This document shows positions 16,988 through 51,196 of a DNA stretch of 54,223 bases, in pieces. This DNA comes from PVC group bacterium. Lineage in GTDB: Bacteria > Auribacterota > Erginobacteria > Erginobacterales > Erginobacteraceae. The notes beneath the pieces are model-generated. The model was not told the DNA's origin and did no database searches. It saw nothing but the letters and a program-made list of their open reading frames with translations. Each line of letters begins with the position of its first letter. The first letter of the stretch is position 1. Made by a program: the position numbers and the translations under genes. The stretch covers positions 1 through 54,223 of the forward strand of contig JAZDIV010000127.1 in NCBI GenBank assembly GCA_043804695.1. The letters are read 5' to 3'.

Positions 16988-17012
16988 GCCACCAAGACAC
17001 CAAGACACCAAG
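16988..17012. repeat. Solo CCACCAAG arm (GCCACCAAGACACCAAGACACCAAG)
   Basis: Three tandem CACCAAGA octamers with no partner arm nearby. The track ORF 16986 starts inside it. Confidence 0.7.
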
Positions 17013-21026: not shown

Positions 21027-21110
21027 GCCACCAAGGCACAAAGGCACCAAGAAAAGAGGGGAAAAAGTAAAATACTCACCTTTTTTGGTTTTTCTTGGTG
21101 TCTTAGTGGC
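21027..21110. repeat. CCACCAAG-arm inverted-repeat element (compact type copy)
   Basis: gccaccaaggcacaaaggcaccaag ... cttggtgtcttagtggc around a 42-nt A/T-rich loop. Confidence 0.85.
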
Positions 21111-29920: not shown

Positions 29921-30024
29921 ACCACTAAGACACCAAGACACCAAAAATAAAAACAATTAAAAATCATTACATAACCTATTTCCATAATTTTTTTGGTGTA
30001 CTTAGTGTCTTTGTGTCTTGGTGG
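29921..30024. repeat. CCACCAAG-arm inverted-repeat element
   Basis: accactaagacaccaagacaccaa ... ttggtgtacttagtgtctttgtgtcttggtgg. Confidence 0.85.
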
Positions 30025-30119
30025 TTGAAATTTTTGTCCCGATTCATTTATTCAAAAGTATTGTTATCGGGATTCCAAAGCAGTCAATCAGCCCGCGGTG
30101 ACTGATCTTCACCAGGGAG

Positions 30120-33356: not shown

Positions 33357-33629
33357 GCCACCAAGGCACCAAGACACCAAGAAAACTGAAAAAGTACAAT
33401 AAAATGATTCCAACAAGATTAAGAAAATTAGGTCGGCCTGGAATCGATTGGACTGTTGCCAAATTATCATAATATCGGACCTTGAATAACGGCCACATAA
33501 TCCTTGTCTCATCCGATTTGTTGCCTGCTTGCAAACTGATTATACGATCTTCATTCTCTTTAACTTAACTTGGTGCCTTTGTGTCTTGGTGGCAAAAAAG
33601 GGGGCGAGGTAGGGTAGTGTCTCGGTGGC
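33357..33629. repeat. CCACCAAG-arm element with extended right arm and ~190-nt loop
   Basis: Begins the nucleotide after the TGA stop. The right arm cttggtgcctttgtgtcttggtggc is followed by aaaaaagggggcgaggtagggtagtgtctcggtggc. Confidence 0.85.
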
Positions 33630-33645
33630 AAATACAGGAGTTCTG

Positions 33646-34338
33646 ATGAAGTGGGAGAGAAAATCCGGCATCATGCTCGCCCTTGACGTCGGGACCGGGG
33701 CGGAGGCTTTCAGCCTGCTCGACCGGGTGGCGGGCGGGATCGATGTGATTAAGTTCAATTACCCGCTGGTGCTCCGGGAGGGGATGGAGATCATCTCCAC
33801 AGTCAAGGAACGGTACCGGAAACCCATCCTGGCCGACTTCAAAATCGCCGACGTCCCGGTGACCAACAACCGGATCATCCGTCTCTGCCGCGAGGCCGGG
33901 GCCGATGGGGTGATGGTCCAGGGTTTTATCGGGATCGACGCCATCCAGTCGGCGATCGAGGCGGCGGGGGTGGTGAAGATCTTTGTCGTGACGCAGCTCA
34001 CCAATCCCGGAGGGCTCGATTTCACGGCCCGGTTCACCGAGGAGTTCGCCGGACTGGCCCGGATGCTGGGCGCGGCCGGCGTCCAGGCGCCCGGAAACCG
34101 TCCCGAGGTGGTGGCCAGAGTCCGGGAGATCGTCGGAGAAGAGCTGATGATCGTCTGCTGCGGGATCGGCGCCCAGGGGGGCGCGTTCGGCCGGGCGATT
34201 GAAGCGGGCGGCGACTTCGAGATCATCGGCCGGGCCATCTACGAAGCGGAAGACCCGGCGCGGGCCGTCCGGGAGATCAAAGACGCCATCGCCTCTTTTC
34301 TGCCACCAAGGCACCAAGTCACCAAGAGAAGCAAATAA
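33646..34338 (+). CDS. pyrF: Orotidine-5'-phosphate decarboxylase
   Basis: LALDV..., ILADFKIADVP (DxKxxD) and a C-terminal IIGRAIY motif. The C-terminal LPPRHQVTKRSK-stop is encoded by a repeat arm. Confidence 0.8.
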   Translation: MKWERKSGIMLALDVGTGAEAFSLLDRVAGGIDVIKFNYPLVLREGMEIISTVKERYRKPILADFKIADVPVTNNRIIRLCREAGADGVMVQGFIGIDAIQSAIEAAGVVKIFVVTQLTNPGGLDFTARFTEEFAGLARMLGAAGVQAPGNRPEVVARVREIVGEELMIVCCGIGAQGGAFGRAIEAGGDFEIIGRAIYEAEDPARAVREIKDAIASFLPPRHQVTKRSK

Positions 34339-34669
34339 AAGAGAAGAGCAGAGAGTTATTAAGGAAAGTATGGAATAGGTTGCATGTCATTCAGACTGTG
34401 TCGCAATCGCCATTTTAAACGTTTTCAATGTCATTGCGAGCCCCGGAGGGGCGAGGCGATCTGACCCGAAGGGTCATCCTGAACGAAGTGAAGGATCTCT
34501 ATAGATCCCTCGTTTCACTCGGGACGATGCTACGCATCGGATTGCTTCGGCCTACGGCCTCGCAATGACGTGTAATTAAATCCTCATTTATAAATATTTC
34601 TTAGTGATTCTTGGTGTCTTAGTGTCTTGGTGGCAAAAAGGGGCCGTGGTAGGGGCAGTGTCTTGGTGG
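34302..34669. repeat. CCACCAAG-arm element containing a nested GTCATTGCGAG element (34430-34569)
   Basis: Left arm gccaccaaggcaccaagtcaccaag. Right arm cttagtgattcttggtgtcttagtgtcttggtggc plus the extended ggggccgtggtaggggcagtgtcttggtgg. Confidence 0.85.
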
Positions 34670-34998
34670 TGAAAATACAGGATTTAAATCTGAGCGTTCA
34701 CGAATACTGCCACGAGGAGAGCACGGTCACCGTCCAGGGAACCGTCCCTCACCCGCTCGACCTGCCGGCCCTGGCCCGCGCGGGGAAAAAGCTCACGGAG
34801 CAGGTCATGCTGATGGACCGTCTGGAGGTCCTCTATCTCACGCTGGGGGGGGTGACCGTGCACATCCACCGCAACGGGGAGATCGTCGTCAACCGGGTCG
34901 GCTCCATCGAGGAAGCGGAGAGAATACTGTCCCTGCTCCTGGGCGATGACAATCGCTCAGAGCCGGCGCCTCGGGGGAAGAATCCCATTGAAAAATAA
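34627..34998 (+). CDS. Small hypothetical protein (start uncertain)
   Basis: The ORF begins inside the repeat arm. The real start may be GTG ~34670 or ATG 34807. No recognisable motif, but codon usage is consistent with coding. Confidence 0.35.
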   Translation: MVAKRGRGRGSVLVVKIQDLNLSVHEYCHEESTVTVQGTVPHPLDLPALARAGKKLTEQVMLMDRLEVLYLTLGGVTVHIHRNGEIVVNRVGSIEEAERILSLLLGDDNRSEPAPRGKNPIEK

Positions 34999-41401: not shown

Positions 41402-41540
41402 ACCACCAAGACACTATCCCCTCCCTCGCCCCCTTTAATAACCACCAAGACACTAAGACACTAAGAAACACTAAGAAAATTAATGTTCCCCCTACCTCGC
41501 CCCCTTTTATAACCACCAAGACACTAAGACACTAAGAAAA
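41402..41540. repeat. Two tandem extended CCACCAAG arms (same orientation)
   Basis: accaccaagacactatcccctccctcgccccctttaataaccaccaagacactaagacactaag, then ccccctacctcgcccccttttataaccaccaagacactaagacactaag. These are the reverse complement of the extended right arms at 33569-33629 and 34600-34669. Confidence 0.8.
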
Positions 41541-41661: not shown

Positions 41662-42519
41662 TCAGGTCTCAGTATAGCAAAGAAGATCCTTCATGGTTAA
41701 TAAAAAACCGACGCCCATGTCGCTTCCCGAGCTTTCACCAAGTGTAACGAGTTTTTCCGTCTGTCGCCGAATGTGATCGGCGCCACCCTGAAGCAACGCT
41801 ACTACCAATTCCTTAAACCCTTCGAACAGGAACCCGTCGGCGGCCAGGGCCATAAACGAGTTCGACAGGAGATTACCTGAACGGGCGGTTGCCACGATCT
41901 CTTTTCTTAACGCCGAACGATCCGCCCCGTCCAGCCGGTCCAGCAGATTCAGGCCGGCTAGAAGACCGGCAATAAAATCGTCCCCGGATGGCGTCAGGCC
42001 GAACCCGACGCCTTTCAGTTGCCGGATTCCTTCAATTATCCGGGATGTCTCAGCACTATGGATAATCCGGACCGCACCTGCTATCCGCTCGGCGACCTTT
42101 TGATCAAACTGTGTCGCAAAAAACCTTTTCCGGGCCGGCTCGATAAGAAAAGCCAAACTTTTCGGGGGCACGCAATCCAGCAGGACGGTTTCAAAAATAC
42201 TCAAATTGGCCCTTAGTCCGTCAAAATTGACTGTTGCCGTTTCTACCCGGGAATGAAAAATCTCCGCCTGATCGGTTGCAAACGGCCGATCGTTTAAAAA
42301 GATGAAACCTCCGTCCGCGCGGAGAGTGTTAAGCTGCGCGAGATCAATTCCCCGTACAACAATATTGACGGGTCCCCTCCCCACCTCCTCCGTCACCACC
42401 GAGACCAGCCGGTCCCCGTTGGCGAAATTGACGACTCTCTTAAACCGGGAGTGAACCGAGTACTCCCCCGGAAAGACCCGGTCGCCGATATTGATGATTC
42501 CTTCTTCTTTTGCCACCAA
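41662..42519 (-). CDS. DUF2877 (YlbF-like) protein
   Basis: GLTPSGDDFIAGLLAGL motif, with fdrA and DUF1116 genes nearby. The start (TTG 42519 or GTG 42516) lies inside a repeat arm. Confidence 0.6.
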   Translation of the reverse strand: MVAKEEGIINIGDRVFPGEYSVHSRFKRVVNFANGDRLVSVVTEEVGRGPVNIVVRGIDLAQLNTLRADGGFIFLNDRPFATDQAEIFHSRVETATVNFDGLRANLSIFETVLLDCVPPKSLAFLIEPARKRFFATQFDQKVAERIAGAVRIIHSAETSRIIEGIRQLKGVGFGLTPSGDDFIAGLLAGLNLLDRLDGADRSALRKEIVATARSGNLLSNSFMALAADGFLFEGFKELVVALLQGGADHIRRQTEKLVTLGESSGSDMGVGFLLTMKDLLCYTET

Positions 42520-42962
42520 GACACCAAGTTAAAGAACCCTTCGTTGAATGCCGAACTTCATAATGGGAACGTTAAAATTAAGAATGAACCCCAATCGTTT
42601 CCCGGTAAGTTTTATGTGGCTTAACAACTGAGCCTCCCAGACAGGATTGACTTTATCTACGGCCTTCAATTCACAGATAACCAAGTCGTCAACCAACACA
42701 TCTAACCGGAGTCCTTCATCGAAGAGCAACCCATCGTATTCTATAGGGACATCAACTTGGCGAAGGACATTATGTCCACGCTTAGACAACTCATGGCAAA
42801 AACAAACCTCGTATACTTTTTCAAGCAATCCTGGACCGAGTGCCTTATGTACCGTGTAAGCCGCATCTACAATCGACTTGGCAATTCGATCTTCTTCTTC
42901 GGATATAGGTTTAAATTTCTCACTCAATTTATTCCCCCTTGGTGACTTGGTGCCTTGGTGGC
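42512..42962. mobile_element. CCACCAAG-arm inverted-repeat element carrying a GxxExxY gene as cargo (candidate autonomous copy)
   Basis: The arms are gccaccaagacaccaag (42512-42528) and cttggtgacttggtgccttggtggc (42938-42962). The 409-nt loop is filled by one AT-richer ORF. A 42-nt direct duplication of arm plus flank lies at 43081-43122. Confidence 0.35.
42529..42927 (-). CDS. GxxExxY-family protein (PD-(D/E)XK nuclease-like fold as I recall)
   Basis: GPGLLEKVYE contains the G-x-x-E-x-x-Y signature, in the typical context IAKSIVDAAYTVHKALGPGLLEKVYEVCFCHEL. TTG at 42927 has GGGGG 6 nt upstream. The longer track ORF to 43023 reads through repeat arms. Confidence 0.75.
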   Translation of the reverse strand: MSEKFKPISEEEDRIAKSIVDAAYTVHKALGPGLLEKVYEVCFCHELSKRGHNVLRQVDVPIEYDGLLFDEGLRLDVLVDDLVICELKAVDKVNPVWEAQLLSHIKLTGKRLGFILNFNVPIMKFGIQRRVL

Positions 42963-43080
42963 GAAATTCATTTAGCCTTTCCCTCGTTACCACGCTCTGC
43001 GTGGCAACGTACTTGAGGAACACTCGCTCTGCTCCTTCGTCCCCACGCGGAGCATGGGAACGAGAAATTTCTCTCTTTTT

Positions 43081-43122
43081 CTTGGTGACTTGGTGTCTTG
43101 GTGGCGAAATTCATTTAGCCTT
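43081..43122. repeat. Second copy of arm plus flank (direct repeat of 42938-42979, 41/42 identical)
   Basis: cttggtgacttggtgtcttggtggcgaaattcatttagcctt. Includes the last three codons and stop of the NCS1 gene on the minus strand. Confidence 0.85.
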
Positions 43123-45012
43123 ATTTTTCAATTTCGCGCTCATCCAGACCGCGTAGACGGCGAAGGAGATAAAGAAACCGCTGAACCAGGCATAGAGATA
43201 GAAGGTCTTGAAAAACTGGGGAACAATATGAGCAAACGTCTGCGGGGCGATTTCGGCCATGAAACCCGGGATATTGGGAAGTACTCCCAGAATGAAGGAT
43301 ATGATCCCGACCCAGTTGAAGCCGCCGGAAAACGTATACGGGCCGTCTTCTTCATACAGGCCGGCCAGGTTGAGCCGTCGGCGGCGGACGACGTAGAAGT
43401 CGGCGATCATCACTCCGGCCACGCCGCCCATCAGCGCCGAGTAACCGATCAGCCAGGTAAAGATAAATTTCCCGGCCGTCGACAGCAGTTTCCAGGGCAT
43501 CATCACGATCCCGATGACGCCGGTGATCAATCCTCCCATCCGGAAGGATATCTTGTGGGGCGCAATATTGGAGAAACCGTTTGCCGGGGCCACCACGTTG
43601 GCTGCTATGTTGGTGGTCAGGGTGGCAACGGCGAGAACCGCCATCGAGAGCACGACCATCCAGGGAATCTTGAAATGGGCAAGTAATGCCACCGGATCCC
43701 AGGGGGCATCTTCCTGGGCCAGAATAGTGGGAAAAGCGATCAGGGCGGCACAGGTAGCGACCACGCCCACGAAAGCGTACAGGGTCATCGTGGTGGGGAG
43801 ACCGATTGCCTGGCCAATGATCTGATCCTTCTGGGATTTGGCAAAGCGGGTGAAATCGGGGATGTTCAGGGAGAGGGTAGCCCAATAACCGACCATGGCG
43901 GTGAGCGCGGGGAAGAAAGCAATAAAGAGCCACGGCCCCGCGGGTCCTCTCTCCTCCCGTTGGGCTGATGCGAGCACAATGGTGGTGGCTTCCGGGTCTT
44001 TGATGCTTCCCAGTTGCGCGCCGACGGTGATCTCCGAGGCATCCTCCCTCCAGTCAACACTGAATTCAGGCCTGAACGGTTCCCACTCCTTATCGGCCAG
44101 GGCATGCGCGACGGTGGATTTTGCTTCCTGTCCCGGGAGAACAACAACTTTCATTCTTTCAACCCGATATACACCGTCTTTTCCCCGCAACGGATCAAGT
44201 ATGACTTTCAAGGAAGTCTCTTCCCTGGTCAGGGTTAGGGTCGGCTGGAGAAAGAGTTTCGAGTTTTTCAACACCGAGGCCAGACCGCCGCCCGTATGAA
44301 TCGCCCAGACGAAGAGCGCGACCCCTACCAGGATCAGGGCCGGGGCGGACAGGGACTCGAACCACTTGATCGACTCCACGCCCCGGAGGACAATAATCAT
44401 GTGGAGAGCCCAGAAAAAGAGGAAGCAGAGCAATTGACCCCCGTTAATCCCGATAAAAGTTGACGTGAGCCCGGGCCATAAATTATCGAGATTGGGGAGA
44501 AAGATCAAAGCGAGAGTGTAGATGGCGAAACCGCCGATCCAGGTCTGGATTCCGAACCACCCGCAGGCCACCAGCCCCCGGAGGATGGAAGGGATCTGGG
44601 CCCCCCGGGTGCCGAAAGAAGAACGGATTAGAACCGGAAACGGGATCCCGTATTTGGTGCCGGGGATGGCGTTCAGGCAGAGCGGGATCAGAACGATGGC
44701 GTTTCCGAGCAGTATGGCCCAGATAGCCTGAACCCAGTTCAGCCCCGTCTTCATCAGGCTGGCCGCCAGCATGTAGGTGGGGATGCAGACGCTGATCCCC
44801 ACCCACAGGGAGGCGATGTTCCAGGTGTTCCAGGTCCGATCCCGGACCGGGACCGGAAGGTTGTCCTCGTTGGCCAGGGGGGACGACGAGACATCGACGG
44901 TCAGTTCGTACATCCCGTGAATCACCCGCTCGGTGCCGCTTTCTTGAAGACCGGATTTCGTTTCCGGCGATGGGGAATGGCCGTTTTGTTCGGTCATATC
45001 TGCTCCCTCCAT
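43111..45012 (-). CDS. NCS1-family nucleobase/hydantoin/allantoin-type cation symporter with a ~100-aa loop insertion
   Basis: 12-TM NCS1 pattern (WNIASLWVGISVCIPTY; GYWATLSLNIPDFTRFAKS). The soluble insert between these regions is encoded at about 43939-44265. Confidence 0.8.
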   Translation of the reverse strand: MEGADMTEQNGHSPSPETKSGLQESGTERVIHGMYELTVDVSSSPLANEDNLPVPVRDRTWNTWNIASLWVGISVCIPTYMLAASLMKTGLNWVQAIWAILLGNAIVLIPLCLNAIPGTKYGIPFPVLIRSSFGTRGAQIPSILRGLVACGWFGIQTWIGGFAIYTLALIFLPNLDNLWPGLTSTFIGINGGQLLCFLFFWALHMIIVLRGVESIKWFESLSAPALILVGVALFVWAIHTGGGLASVLKNSKLFLQPTLTLTREETSLKVILDPLRGKDGVYRVERMKVVVLPGQEAKSTVAHALADKEWEPFRPEFSVDWREDASEITVGAQLGSIKDPEATTIVLASAQREERGPAGPWLFIAFFPALTAMVGYWATLSLNIPDFTRFAKSQKDQIIGQAIGLPTTMTLYAFVGVVATCAALIAFPTILAQEDAPWDPVALLAHFKIPWMVVLSMAVLAVATLTTNIAANVVAPANGFSNIAPHKISFRMGGLITGVIGIVMMPWKLLSTAGKFIFTWLIGYSALMGGVAGVMIADFYVVRRRRLNLAGLYEEDGPYTFSGGFNWVGIISFILGVLPNIPGFMAEIAPQTFAHIVPQFFKTFYLYAWFSGFFISFAVYAVWMSAKLKNKAK

Positions 45013-46614: not shown

Positions 46615-46877
46615 ACCACCAAGACACTACAGACTGATAACCACCAAGACACTAAGACACCAAGAGAGAAGAAGGATAAAATAACCTGTTTCGGAGAGGG
46701 GAGGAGATCAGATTATCCGAGAATCAGTTAGAAGGTTATCAGGATAACAGGCAACCAGGACCCTGGTGCAGGCCCCCTGATCTCCCGGTTTCCTGATTCT
46801 CTGCTCACTGATATCCTGATTTCCTGATACGCATTTCTTCTTCGTGTCTTAGTGGTTATTCGAACGTGTCTTGGTGG
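46615..46877. repeat. CCACCAAG-arm element (doubled arms) with nested family F inverted repeat (46706-46830)
   Basis: Left arm accaccaagacactacagactgataaccaccaagacactaagacaccaag. Right arm cttcttcgtgtcttagtggttattcgaacgtgtcttggtgg. Confidence 0.8.
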
Positions 46878-46893
46878 TAACAAAAGGAGGAAA

Positions 46894-50289: not shown

Positions 50290-50380
50290 GCCACCAAGTC
50301 ACAAAGTCACCAAGAAAAAAAGTGAAGTGTTAAATCCCTAACTTATTTTGTTTTTCTTAGTGTCTTGGTGTCTTGGTGGC
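50290..50380. repeat. CCACCAAG-arm element between the FAD and Fe-S subunit genes
   Basis: gccaccaagtcacaaagtcaccaag ... cttagtgtcttggtgtcttggtggc. Confidence 0.85.
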
Positions 50381-50907: not shown

Positions 50908-51196
50908 GCCACCAAGGCACCAAGACACCAAGGGGAGGATAAAGGAGCGCTTCGCGCTAATTGACAATAGCTATATCCTAAAGATTTTACCAAAGGTTAT
51001 CTGAGTCAACCCCGTTGTCATTGCGGGCGAAGCAATCTCATCATTCTTATCTGTCATTACGAGGAGCGCAGCGACGAAGCAATCTCAATTATTCGAGCAA
51101 CAAAATATCCTGATTACCATTGGAGATTACGCTGCCCCCACGGGGCTAACGATGCCTACATATATTATTTACTTGGTGCCTTAGTGCCTTGGTGGC
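50908..51196. repeat. CCACCAAG-arm element with nested GTCATTGCG-type elements, between the Fe-S and Mo subunit genes
   Basis: Arms gccaccaaggcaccaagacaccaag and cttggtgccttagtgccttggtggc. Inner gtcattgcgggcgaagcaatc (51017) and gtcattacgaggagcgcagcgacgaagcaatc (51053). Confidence 0.85.

Follow-up and report, generated by a model that had tools for sequence, protein, structure and literature searches.

GxxExxY nuclease-family genes between tandem octamer arms: a candidate mobile hairpin cassette of bacterial operon spacers

The intervening sequence (IVS) in the 23S rRNA gene of Coxiella has been described as a selfish element of 428 nt with an inverted-repeat stem that RNase III cuts. A sense-oriented S23p open reading frame (ORF) is preceded by three tandem heptamers (GACAGAT), and a purine-rich ribosome-binding region lies within the stem (PMC4990558). 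The GxxExxY (PDDEXK_3) proteins are a family for which the function is listed as unknown and multiple transfers have been noted (PMC3424549). We have analysed a 54,223 nt stretch of DNA (contig JAZDIV010000127.1 of assembly GCA_043804695.1; hereafter the window) from a PVC group bacterium of the Erginobacteraceae, in which one GxxExxY gene fills the loop between inverted arms of tandem octamers. No earlier description of such arms was found in open-access papers or preprints on GxxExxY or PDDEXK_3, and the literature on the family is almost absent. The data show that gene and arms form a cassette that inserts as a unit, multiplies in genomes, crosses phyla and decays to hairpins, and that it keeps an intact nuclease. 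We put at about even the chance that this is a mobile cassette, widespread and promoterless, and that its nuclease probably acts on the arms around it and, in trans, on the much more numerous gene-less hairpins.

A GxxExxY gene between paired arms

The first-pass annotation of the window described octamer arms enclosing a 409 nt loop with a minus-strand ORF. This arrangement holds in all but one detail, as the downstream arm (relative to the gene) has two units, not three. This arm is GCCACCAAGACACCAAG (42512-42528; GC plus two CACCAAG units), and the sequence at 42938-42962 is its reverse complement with three units instead of two. The loop between them (42529-42937) is occupied by the single ORF. 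As had been annotated, the stop codon TAA (42529-42531) abuts the downstream arm without a gap and the in-frame TTG is preceded by only one Shine-Dalgarno (SD)-like sequence, the G-run of GGGGAATAAA joined to the last AAG of the arm. The TTG aligns to the ATG of a homologue (L001), and an identical 132 aa product has been called in a public protein collection (P0001). The gene region is AT-richer, as stated earlier, with about 43% G+C against 58% for the window.

The ORF, first picked out by a G-LL-E-KV-Y signature, matches both TIGR04256 (GxxExxY protein; 127.5 bits against a cut-off of 35; 3e-37) and PF13366 (PDDEXK_3; 121.1 bits against a cut-off of 22; 4e-35). At 50% identity the family forms 15,687 clusters within the representative library. 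Residues G33, E36, Y39, D76, E86 and K88 are invariant among 48 homologues (the window protein included); D76 and E86-x-K88 are the catalytic residues, and the G-x-x-E-x-x-Y motif is likewise present. Because dN/dS is 0.066 (149 closest homologue pairs) and the catalytic residues are invariant, the protein is functional and under strong purifying selection. The AF2 model has a pLDDT of 86.6 and its Foldseek neighbours are Cas4 and lambda exonuclease (4r5q, 4ic1, 3syy, 1avq), all of them weak (E at least 2.6e-3, TM 0.3-0.5); a PDB sequence search with the window protein gave no match among solved structures. The protein is a minimal RecB/Cas4-like PD-(D/E)xK core. Searches of PADLOC and PHROGs gave no match, and no transposase of any recognised family was found for this element. 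About fifteen of the 150 best family representatives (P0244, P0253, P0255, P0262 and others; 266-295 aa) carry two tandem GxxExxY domains, and these fusions suggest that the protein may work as a dimer. Another family representative, P0245 (2094 aa, 27 matched stretches), was rejected as a low-complexity artefact.

The expectation that GxxExxY genes elsewhere would also be flanked by octamer arms is borne out. Eighty loci with close homologues (67-78% identical to the window protein) were collected, spanning more than ten phyla (Desulfobacterota, Bacteroidota, Ignavibacteriota, Planctomycetota, Chloroflexota, Acidobacteriota, Nitrospinota, Cloacimonadota and others). When two or more CACNAAG units are required on the upstream side and two or more CTTNGTG units on the downstream side, both arms are present at 55/80 of these loci and at 0/139 control windows displaced by 900 nt at the same loci (Fisher p = 1.5e-32). 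The two arms of the window thus belong to one element and not to two neighbours, since dozens of genomes have the same architecture. The gap between stop codon and arm is 0-2 nt in 26 of 56 loci. Since the upstream arm mostly ends 7-8 nt ahead of the ATG in the homologues, its last unit (...AAGG(A)) is predicted to serve there as the ribosome-binding site (RBS). The association extends to a distant clade, the relatives of the Bacteroides finegoldii GxxExxY protein (41% identical to the window protein), in which flanking inverted repeats occur at 48/68 loci against 2/122 controls (in a sample of 35-100% identity). Some Chloroflexota copies have a complete hairpin right after the stop codon and no enclosing arms. 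A plasmid search for GxxExxY returned six records only, which served as annotated examples.

The same association is seen when the arms are taken as the starting point. When 185,579 species genomes were searched for arm pairs with a gap of 405-435 nt, 104 elements were found, and 87 of these contain a GxxExxY gene (36-76% identical to the window protein). The remaining loops are mostly stacked gene-less hairpins or non-coding sequence; one pair encloses an atpI-like host gene, probably by chance, and no other gene directly bounded by CACNAAG arms was found among the 104 elements. Loop lengths between paired arms are bimodal, being either 2-91 nt and gene-less or about 394-440 nt and gene-bearing. 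Odd N-terminal extensions of database GxxExxY proteins, brought up in the first-pass annotation as possible read-through of arms, do correspond to translated arms (FRHQDTKAQR, THKDTKE, EATKTQRHKKG and SHEGTKAQR).

Presence and absence of the element were compared at the junction between radA and the gene for a FAD-dependent protein in 80 Bacteroidaceae genomes, in about 50 of which the FAD gene was located. Polymorphism of the kind that the first-pass annotation proposed as a check is seen here between related species. In the empty state the spacer is 0-36 nt with no trace of an arm (for example TAA-GTA-ATG), whereas in eight genomes arms and a GxxExxY gene fill a spacer of 452-606 nt. One further GxxExxY gene at this junction has no recognisable arms (L193), another locus has arms around an internally deleted gene (L170) and a third a decayed arm remnant (L171). 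These armless, full and deleted states show that arms and gene were inserted together as one unit and that deletion gives rise to gene-less derivatives. Three groups of occupants can be told apart, with different arm units and with 48-66% identity from group to group, while radA itself is 84-100% identical; this reflects either repeated insertion at one site or an old polymorphism with transfer. Additionally, copies at different loci of the same metagenome-assembled genome have 89-97% nucleotide identity against a median of 68.5% for all pairs.

Gene-less hairpins, arm sequences and local context

There are 33 instances of the two-unit arm pattern in the window, where shuffled sequence would give 0.01, and they make up about 11 intergenic elements, some ten gene-less and one gene-bearing (Table 1). 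The window contains one GxxExxY gene only. A second set of hairpins was found in IMG/VR by way of one perfect arm (77 hairpins, their loops 10-86 nt long, in 59 stretches that total 511 kb; the contigs may not be viral). Both sets bear out the earlier statement that copies without cargo are the commoner ones, and gene-less hairpins with 3 + 3 units are at least ten times as common as gene-bearing ones. In the window they occupy divergent, convergent and co-directional spacers alike. We rejected the possibility that they are terminators because a T-run lies 5' and an A-run 3' on both strands and because they stand in divergent as well as convergent spacers. Stacks of adjacent gene-less CACNAAG hairpins are present in a cultured organism with a complete genome, Desulfonema magnum 4be13 (CP061800; L317, L338, L372). 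Another repeat family lies inside the long loops at 34327-34600 and 50933-51171 of the window (GTCATTGCGAG...GAAGCAATCT and ...CTCGCAATGAC palindromes).

A typical arm has three tandem 8 bp units of CAC-N-AAG plus a purine. The unit differs between clades: CACAGAGGA / CGCAGAGGA in Bacteroides, C(A/G)CAGATT in some Bacteroidaceae, CGC(A/G)GAGG in Cyanobacteria, ACACNAAGG in Anaerolineae, CGCGAAGGA in Betaproteobacteria and CACGGAGT in Tepidisphaerales. The core common to all of them is C(A/G)C-N-(A/G)AG. The relation of clade to arm type is reported qualitatively, as 49 sequences of the diverse clade merged under single linkage at 62%.

In the IMG/VR hairpins the fixed positions of the partner arm are kept in 68-76 of 76 cases (89-100%, mostly at least 97%), whereas at the N position each of the four bases has a share of roughly 25% and the spacer is mostly a pyrimidine. 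In the gene-bearing elements N is independent between the two arms (38 Watson-Crick pairs observed, 38.7 expected), and the R/Y spacers of paired arms combine at random with no depletion of A·C. Sense-strand mismatches favouring G·U, a signature of RNA, match expectation under independence and are uninformative either way. Since the fixed positions are conserved while N and spacer are random and do not covary, and since a pure stem would be expected to do the reverse, the pattern points to sequence-specific recognition of the arms rather than simple pairing. It fits a protein that recognises each 8 bp unit and ignores the central base. Recognition by a protein and a role as an RNA stem are mutually compatible. 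Among Bacteroides orthologues with proteins 90-100% identical (L085-L090), the downstream arms are identical and the upstream arms differ at N and at unit position 2 (CGCAGAGG vs CACTGAGG; CACGGAGG vs CACAGAGG), which hints at fast change at the unconstrained positions.

Genes for PF05635, the 23S IVS protein of ~130 aa, are found outside rRNA as well (L406-L435), where they are wedged between host genes in the sense direction (aroA>X>aroK; epimerase>X>epimerase). The upstream arm is GGTTCA(A/C)(G/A)G and the downstream one CCGTGAAC, and the stop codon falls within the arm. Because PF05635 and GxxExxY genes carry different octamer arms of their own, each small-protein family has cognate arms, as clades of the repetitive extragenic palindrome (REP)-associated tyrosine transposases (RAYTs) have cognate REPs. 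One locus, L341, seemed to offer PF05635 as an alternative cargo of CACNAAG arms. This was rejected, as the PF05635 gene there belongs to a second, complete element that has arms of its own and sits within the loop (L341:1375-1823; GGTTCANGG arms and a GTAAC..TCAG outer palindrome inside a CACNAAG hairpin). The ORF of the nested element has a 24 nt palindromic micro-insertion (CCTGTCTGCCG...CAGGCAGG). In Desulfobacterales a third palindrome, GTAACNNNTCAG...CTGANNNGTTAC, forms the outer shell of both GxxExxY and PF05635 elements (L003, L026, L029, L036, L042, L052, L055, L416, L426); the elements either favour this hairpin as a target or form a composite with it.

The gene order around the element in the window is NCS1 permease > element > allH > CoA-ligase-like gene, all on the minus strand, so that the element is in sense orientation relative to this catabolic cluster. 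When the NCS1 permease and P0001 were looked up by exact sequence, no other contig was found. The permease (43111-45012, minus strand; 633 aa) is matched by its Pfam model in two stretches, the best of which covers residues 362-610; this suggests that there may be a sizeable insertion in the middle of the transporter. By a crude ORF heuristic, the upstream neighbour is co-oriented with the GxxExxY gene at 66/73 loci and both neighbours are at 46/57. Annotated contexts, with X for the GxxExxY gene, are fabD > X > fabG, radA > X > FAD protein, ade > X > mannose-1-phosphate guanylyltransferase and OEP > X > RND pump. Across 2.0 Mb of collected loci no conserved 23S motif was found, and the neighbours are protein-coding. 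As the element leaves no space for an internal promoter, read-through transcription from the host operon is the simplest inference. In the predicted RNA fold of the element the arms form a closing stem of 18 bp; the fold of the whole element is not more stable than shuffles (z = -1.1), so this stem alone is informative. An Rfam scan of the window gave no match.

The first-pass annotation also took a 42 nt direct repeat (42938-42979 vs 43081-43122) for the footprint of an insertion. The repeat is real, with 41/42 positions identical and the sole mismatch at an arm spacer position. It is a local feature and no general footprint, because target duplications like it were not seen at other GxxExxY loci and because direct duplications of arm plus flank recur in the window (41404-41535, 33594-33640, 34633-34680, 46617-46641 and 46856-46880, some of them truncated outer arms). 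The segment between the two upstream-arm copies contains, after its first 17 nt, 101 nt (42980-43080) with two imperfect palindromes, CTCGTTACCACGC... and ...GCATGGGAACGAG (CTCGTTACCACGCTCTGCGTGGCAACG / CGTCCCCACGCGGAGCATGGGAACGAG), and has no second copy of these 101 nt within the window. The truncated outer arms are CCACCAAGACAC, separated from the full arm by about 24 nt (TACCCTACCTCGCCCCCTTTT), or by 12 nt at 46.6 kb. Together, truncated outer arms and full arms amount to nesting of hairpin in hairpin inside one family.

Table 1. Positions of the gene-bearing element, its flanking duplication and other arm-derived features in the window
Feature	Position	Strand	Details
GxxExxY / PDDEXK_3 nuclease gene	42529..42927	-	132 aa; TTG start 42927-42925; TAA stop 42531-42529
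Downstream arm	42512..42528		Gene-strand reading CTTGGTGTCTTGGTGGC; pairs with 42938-42962 in minimum free energy and centroid RNA folds
Spacer GGGGAATAAA, upstream arm to start codon	42928..42937	-	G-run plus arm-terminal AAG (AAGGGGG)
Upstream arm	42938..42962		Three octamer units plus GC; plus strand CTTGGTGACTTGGTGCCTTGGTGGC, gene strand GCCACCAAGGCACCAAGTCACCAAG
Segment between upstream-arm copies	42963..43080		118 nt; first 17 nt (42963-42979) duplicate NCS1 3' end and stop
Outer upstream-arm copy and NCS1 end	43081..43122		Arm 43081-43105; genuine last codons and TGA stop 43106-43122
Solo arm, three units	16988..17012		No nearby partner
Gene-less hairpin	21027..21110		3 + 2 units, 42 nt loop
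Gene-less hairpin	29921..30025		3 + 3 units, partly degenerate
Arms with 187 nt non-coding loop	33357..33593		Truncated extra arm next to it, 33594-33640
Arms with 273 nt loop	34302..34634		Loop palindrome GTCATTGCGAG...CTCGCAATGAC; truncated extra arm next to it
Two direct copies of arm plus about 25 nt flank	41404..41535		No partner arm
Hairpin nested in truncated outer hairpin	46617..46880		Inner arms 46642-46664 and 46840-46854
Gene-less hairpin	50290..50380		3 + 3 units
Arms with 239 nt non-coding loop	50908..51196		Loop contains other repeats

Proposed mechanism and its alternatives

In the mechanism that we propose, the gene would be transcribed by read-through from the host operon. The arms of the transcript would pair and enclose the ORF, sequestering the RBS once the downstream arm has been made, as in the 23S IVS that are processed by RNase III. 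The nuclease, probably a dimer, would recognise the repeated units sequence-specifically in DNA and would make the breaks by which its own cassette and, in trans, the gene-less hairpins are copied or moved. The logic would resemble that of REPIN/RAYT systems, with a different enzyme.

Several points weigh against this mechanism. Binding, cutting or movement of the arms by the protein is a step that we infer. No target-site duplication is visible when occupied and empty radA junctions or the flanks of L001-L080 are compared, the spacers being too diverged for base-exact mapping. The empty junctions have neither arms nor a conserved motif or recognition sequence, and no defined target was found. 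Orthologous Bacteroides copies are stable across species, which indicates low recent mobility there. Neighbouring bacterial genes are co-oriented in roughly 70-75% of cases as a background, and this tempers the orientation bias. No GxxExxY gene is present in the 511 kb of IMG/VR contigs, which were ascertained by their arms and hold 77 hairpins, so a partner in the same genome is only putative for these. Finally, IVS with the same architecture carry a non-nuclease cargo (PMC4990558), and a nuclease is thus not obviously required.

This last point leads to an element that is passive in the manner of an IVS. Its arms would form an RNA stem cut by RNase III and be harmless in operons, GxxExxY would be one of several selfish or accessory cargos, and spread would be due not to this nuclease but to host recombination, horizontal gene transfer or some other factor. 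The Coxiella element combines such a stem with tandem heptamers and a sense ORF that encodes no nuclease (PMC4990558), the PF05635 genes stand in operon spacers with tandem-octamer arms like those of GxxExxY, the arms both close the predicted RNA fold and contain the RBS, and the orthologous Bacteroides copies are stably inherited. However, a structural stem should drift while it keeps its pairing, and what we see is a motif conserved at 89-100% with N and spacer positions that do not covary and A·C that is not depleted. Gene family and arm type are also specifically paired (GxxExxY with CRCNRAG, PF05635 with GGTTCANGG), the sole apparent exception being the nested insertion, and the active site of an intact nuclease is under strong purifying selection. 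We regard a purely passive element as rather unlikely, at perhaps half the likelihood of an element with an acting nuclease.

It is also improbable, though conceivable, that the hairpins are primary and that GxxExxY homes into them, by cutting hairpins or palindromes and being copied into the loop through repair that uses ~25 bp of arm homology. This would explain why the gene is always exactly at the centre of the palindrome and why some hairpin loops hold another element (L341; the shells of GTAAC..TCAG in Desulfobacterales), it agrees with the lack of visible target duplications, and arms of ~25 bp are near the minimum for RecA-dependent exchange. Yet the unoccupied radA junctions have no arms whatever, which indicates that arms and gene arrive jointly, and gene-less hairpins outnumber occupied ones by at least ten to one, which is not expected of efficient homing targets. 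We give even less credence, indeed very little, to a benefit for the host, with the hairpins serving in regulation or structure (mRNA stability, insulation, nucleoid sites) and GxxExxY as a housekeeping nuclease expressed from one of them. The very high conservation of each hairpin copy, the low dN/dS and the stable inheritance in Bacteroides are in its favour, but presence is patchy between close species, identity of 70-78% is shared across phyla together with a foreign base composition, some copies are internally deleted, the hairpins sit in spacers of all three orientations, and Rfam and PADLOC hold no matching RNA family or defence system. Chance adjacency, in which the arms at 42512 and 42938 would come from two independent hairpins with the gene merely in between, has next to no probability. 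The extra upstream arm at 43081-43105 shows that arms without a partner occur, and the pair around the atpI-like gene is a likely case of coincidence, but the layout of a gene between arms at 55/80 homologous loci in many phyla, and at 0/139 controls, refutes it for this family.

Taken together, the data allow a broader proposal, which we consider possible and would back somewhat less readily than an acting nuclease. GxxExxY and its arms may be the type of a large superfamily of autonomous, promoterless hairpin cassettes of ~450 bp, each coding for one small arm-recognising protein, which would be a PD-(D/E)xK nuclease for GxxExxY and a four-helix-bundle protein in a sister group. Such cassettes would seed genomes with gene-less hairpins by the thousand and insert into one another's loops; in rRNA genes they would be the ORF-bearing IVS. 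If this is true, it would provide a mobility mechanism for IVSs and a role for two very large families whose function is listed as unknown. Were the cassette to be established, it would account for an abundant class of intergenic hairpins in many environmental bacteria and show where many of the odd N-terminal extensions and mis-called starts in annotation come from. It would also link hairpin repeats to the thirty-year-old puzzle of the origin and spread of ORF-bearing rRNA IVS. The unusual signature of the arms, six near-invariant bases per 8 bp unit around a randomised base, is a testable handle on protein-DNA recognition.

Comparison with known systems

The ORF-bearing 23S IVS of Coxiella and Leptospira are alike in size (about 430-450 nt), in a stem of about three units of 7-8 nt and in a single ORF of about 125-130 aa. 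They share the sense orientation of this ORF, the purine-rich RBS in the stem, a patchy horizontal distribution and a decaying ORF (PMC4990558). The cargo differs, being a PD-(D/E)xK nuclease (PF13366) in the GxxExxY element and the four-helix-bundle S23p / PF05635 in the IVS. So does the arm unit, which is CRCNRAG as opposed to GACAGAT (IVS) or GGTTCANGG (PF05635). Additionally, the GxxExxY elements are located in protein-coding operon spacers, in contrast with helix 25 or 45 of 23S rRNA for the IVS. The TAACTGA heptamers of Beggiatoaceae (PMC4679880) were considered as well and are not the same thing, as they are direct repeats with no link to a nuclease.

With Cas4, RecB and lambda exonuclease the window protein shares, by our own reading of the motifs in the alignment, E...D...ExK and a Q-x-x-x-(H/Y) helix motif; it has neither the Fe-S cluster cysteines nor the extra domains. 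Homing endonucleases resemble the system in that a very small PD-(D/E)xK nuclease is the sole gene of a selfish insert with no visible target duplication, and in that one site is repeatedly occupied by divergent alleles. I-Ssp6803I is an example of a homing endonuclease of the PD-(D/E)xK type, free-standing or intron-borne. The GxxExxY element, however, is associated with neither intron nor intein and has inverted arms of its own, and its empty orthologous sites at the radA junction show no conserved recognition sequence or hairpin. In comparison with miniature inverted-repeat transposable elements (MITEs) and their parent insertion sequences (ISs), there are likewise terminal inverted repeats (the 25 nt arms), many short gene-less derivatives and an internally deleted intermediate (L170). 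The difference is that the whole element is ~450 bp long, with no recognised transposase, detected target-site duplication or promoter of its own.

The analogy drawn in the first-pass annotation, with REPs and RAYTs, holds for the layout. In both cases a single small gene is enclosed by a short repeat in inverted orientation, and this repeat is plentiful elsewhere in the genome without a gene; clades of the protein are paired with cognate repeats, the repeats are intergenic and no target duplications are seen. Membership is excluded, because RAYTs are HUH tyrosine (Y1) transposases of the IS200/IS605 type, while the window protein matches PDDEXK_3 / GxxExxY only; the logic alone is analogous. 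The GxxExxY arms are tandem arrays of 8 bp units with a free central base and not a REP palindrome. RAYTs are largely inherited vertically, and the GxxExxY family, in contrast, crosses many phyla at about 70% identity.

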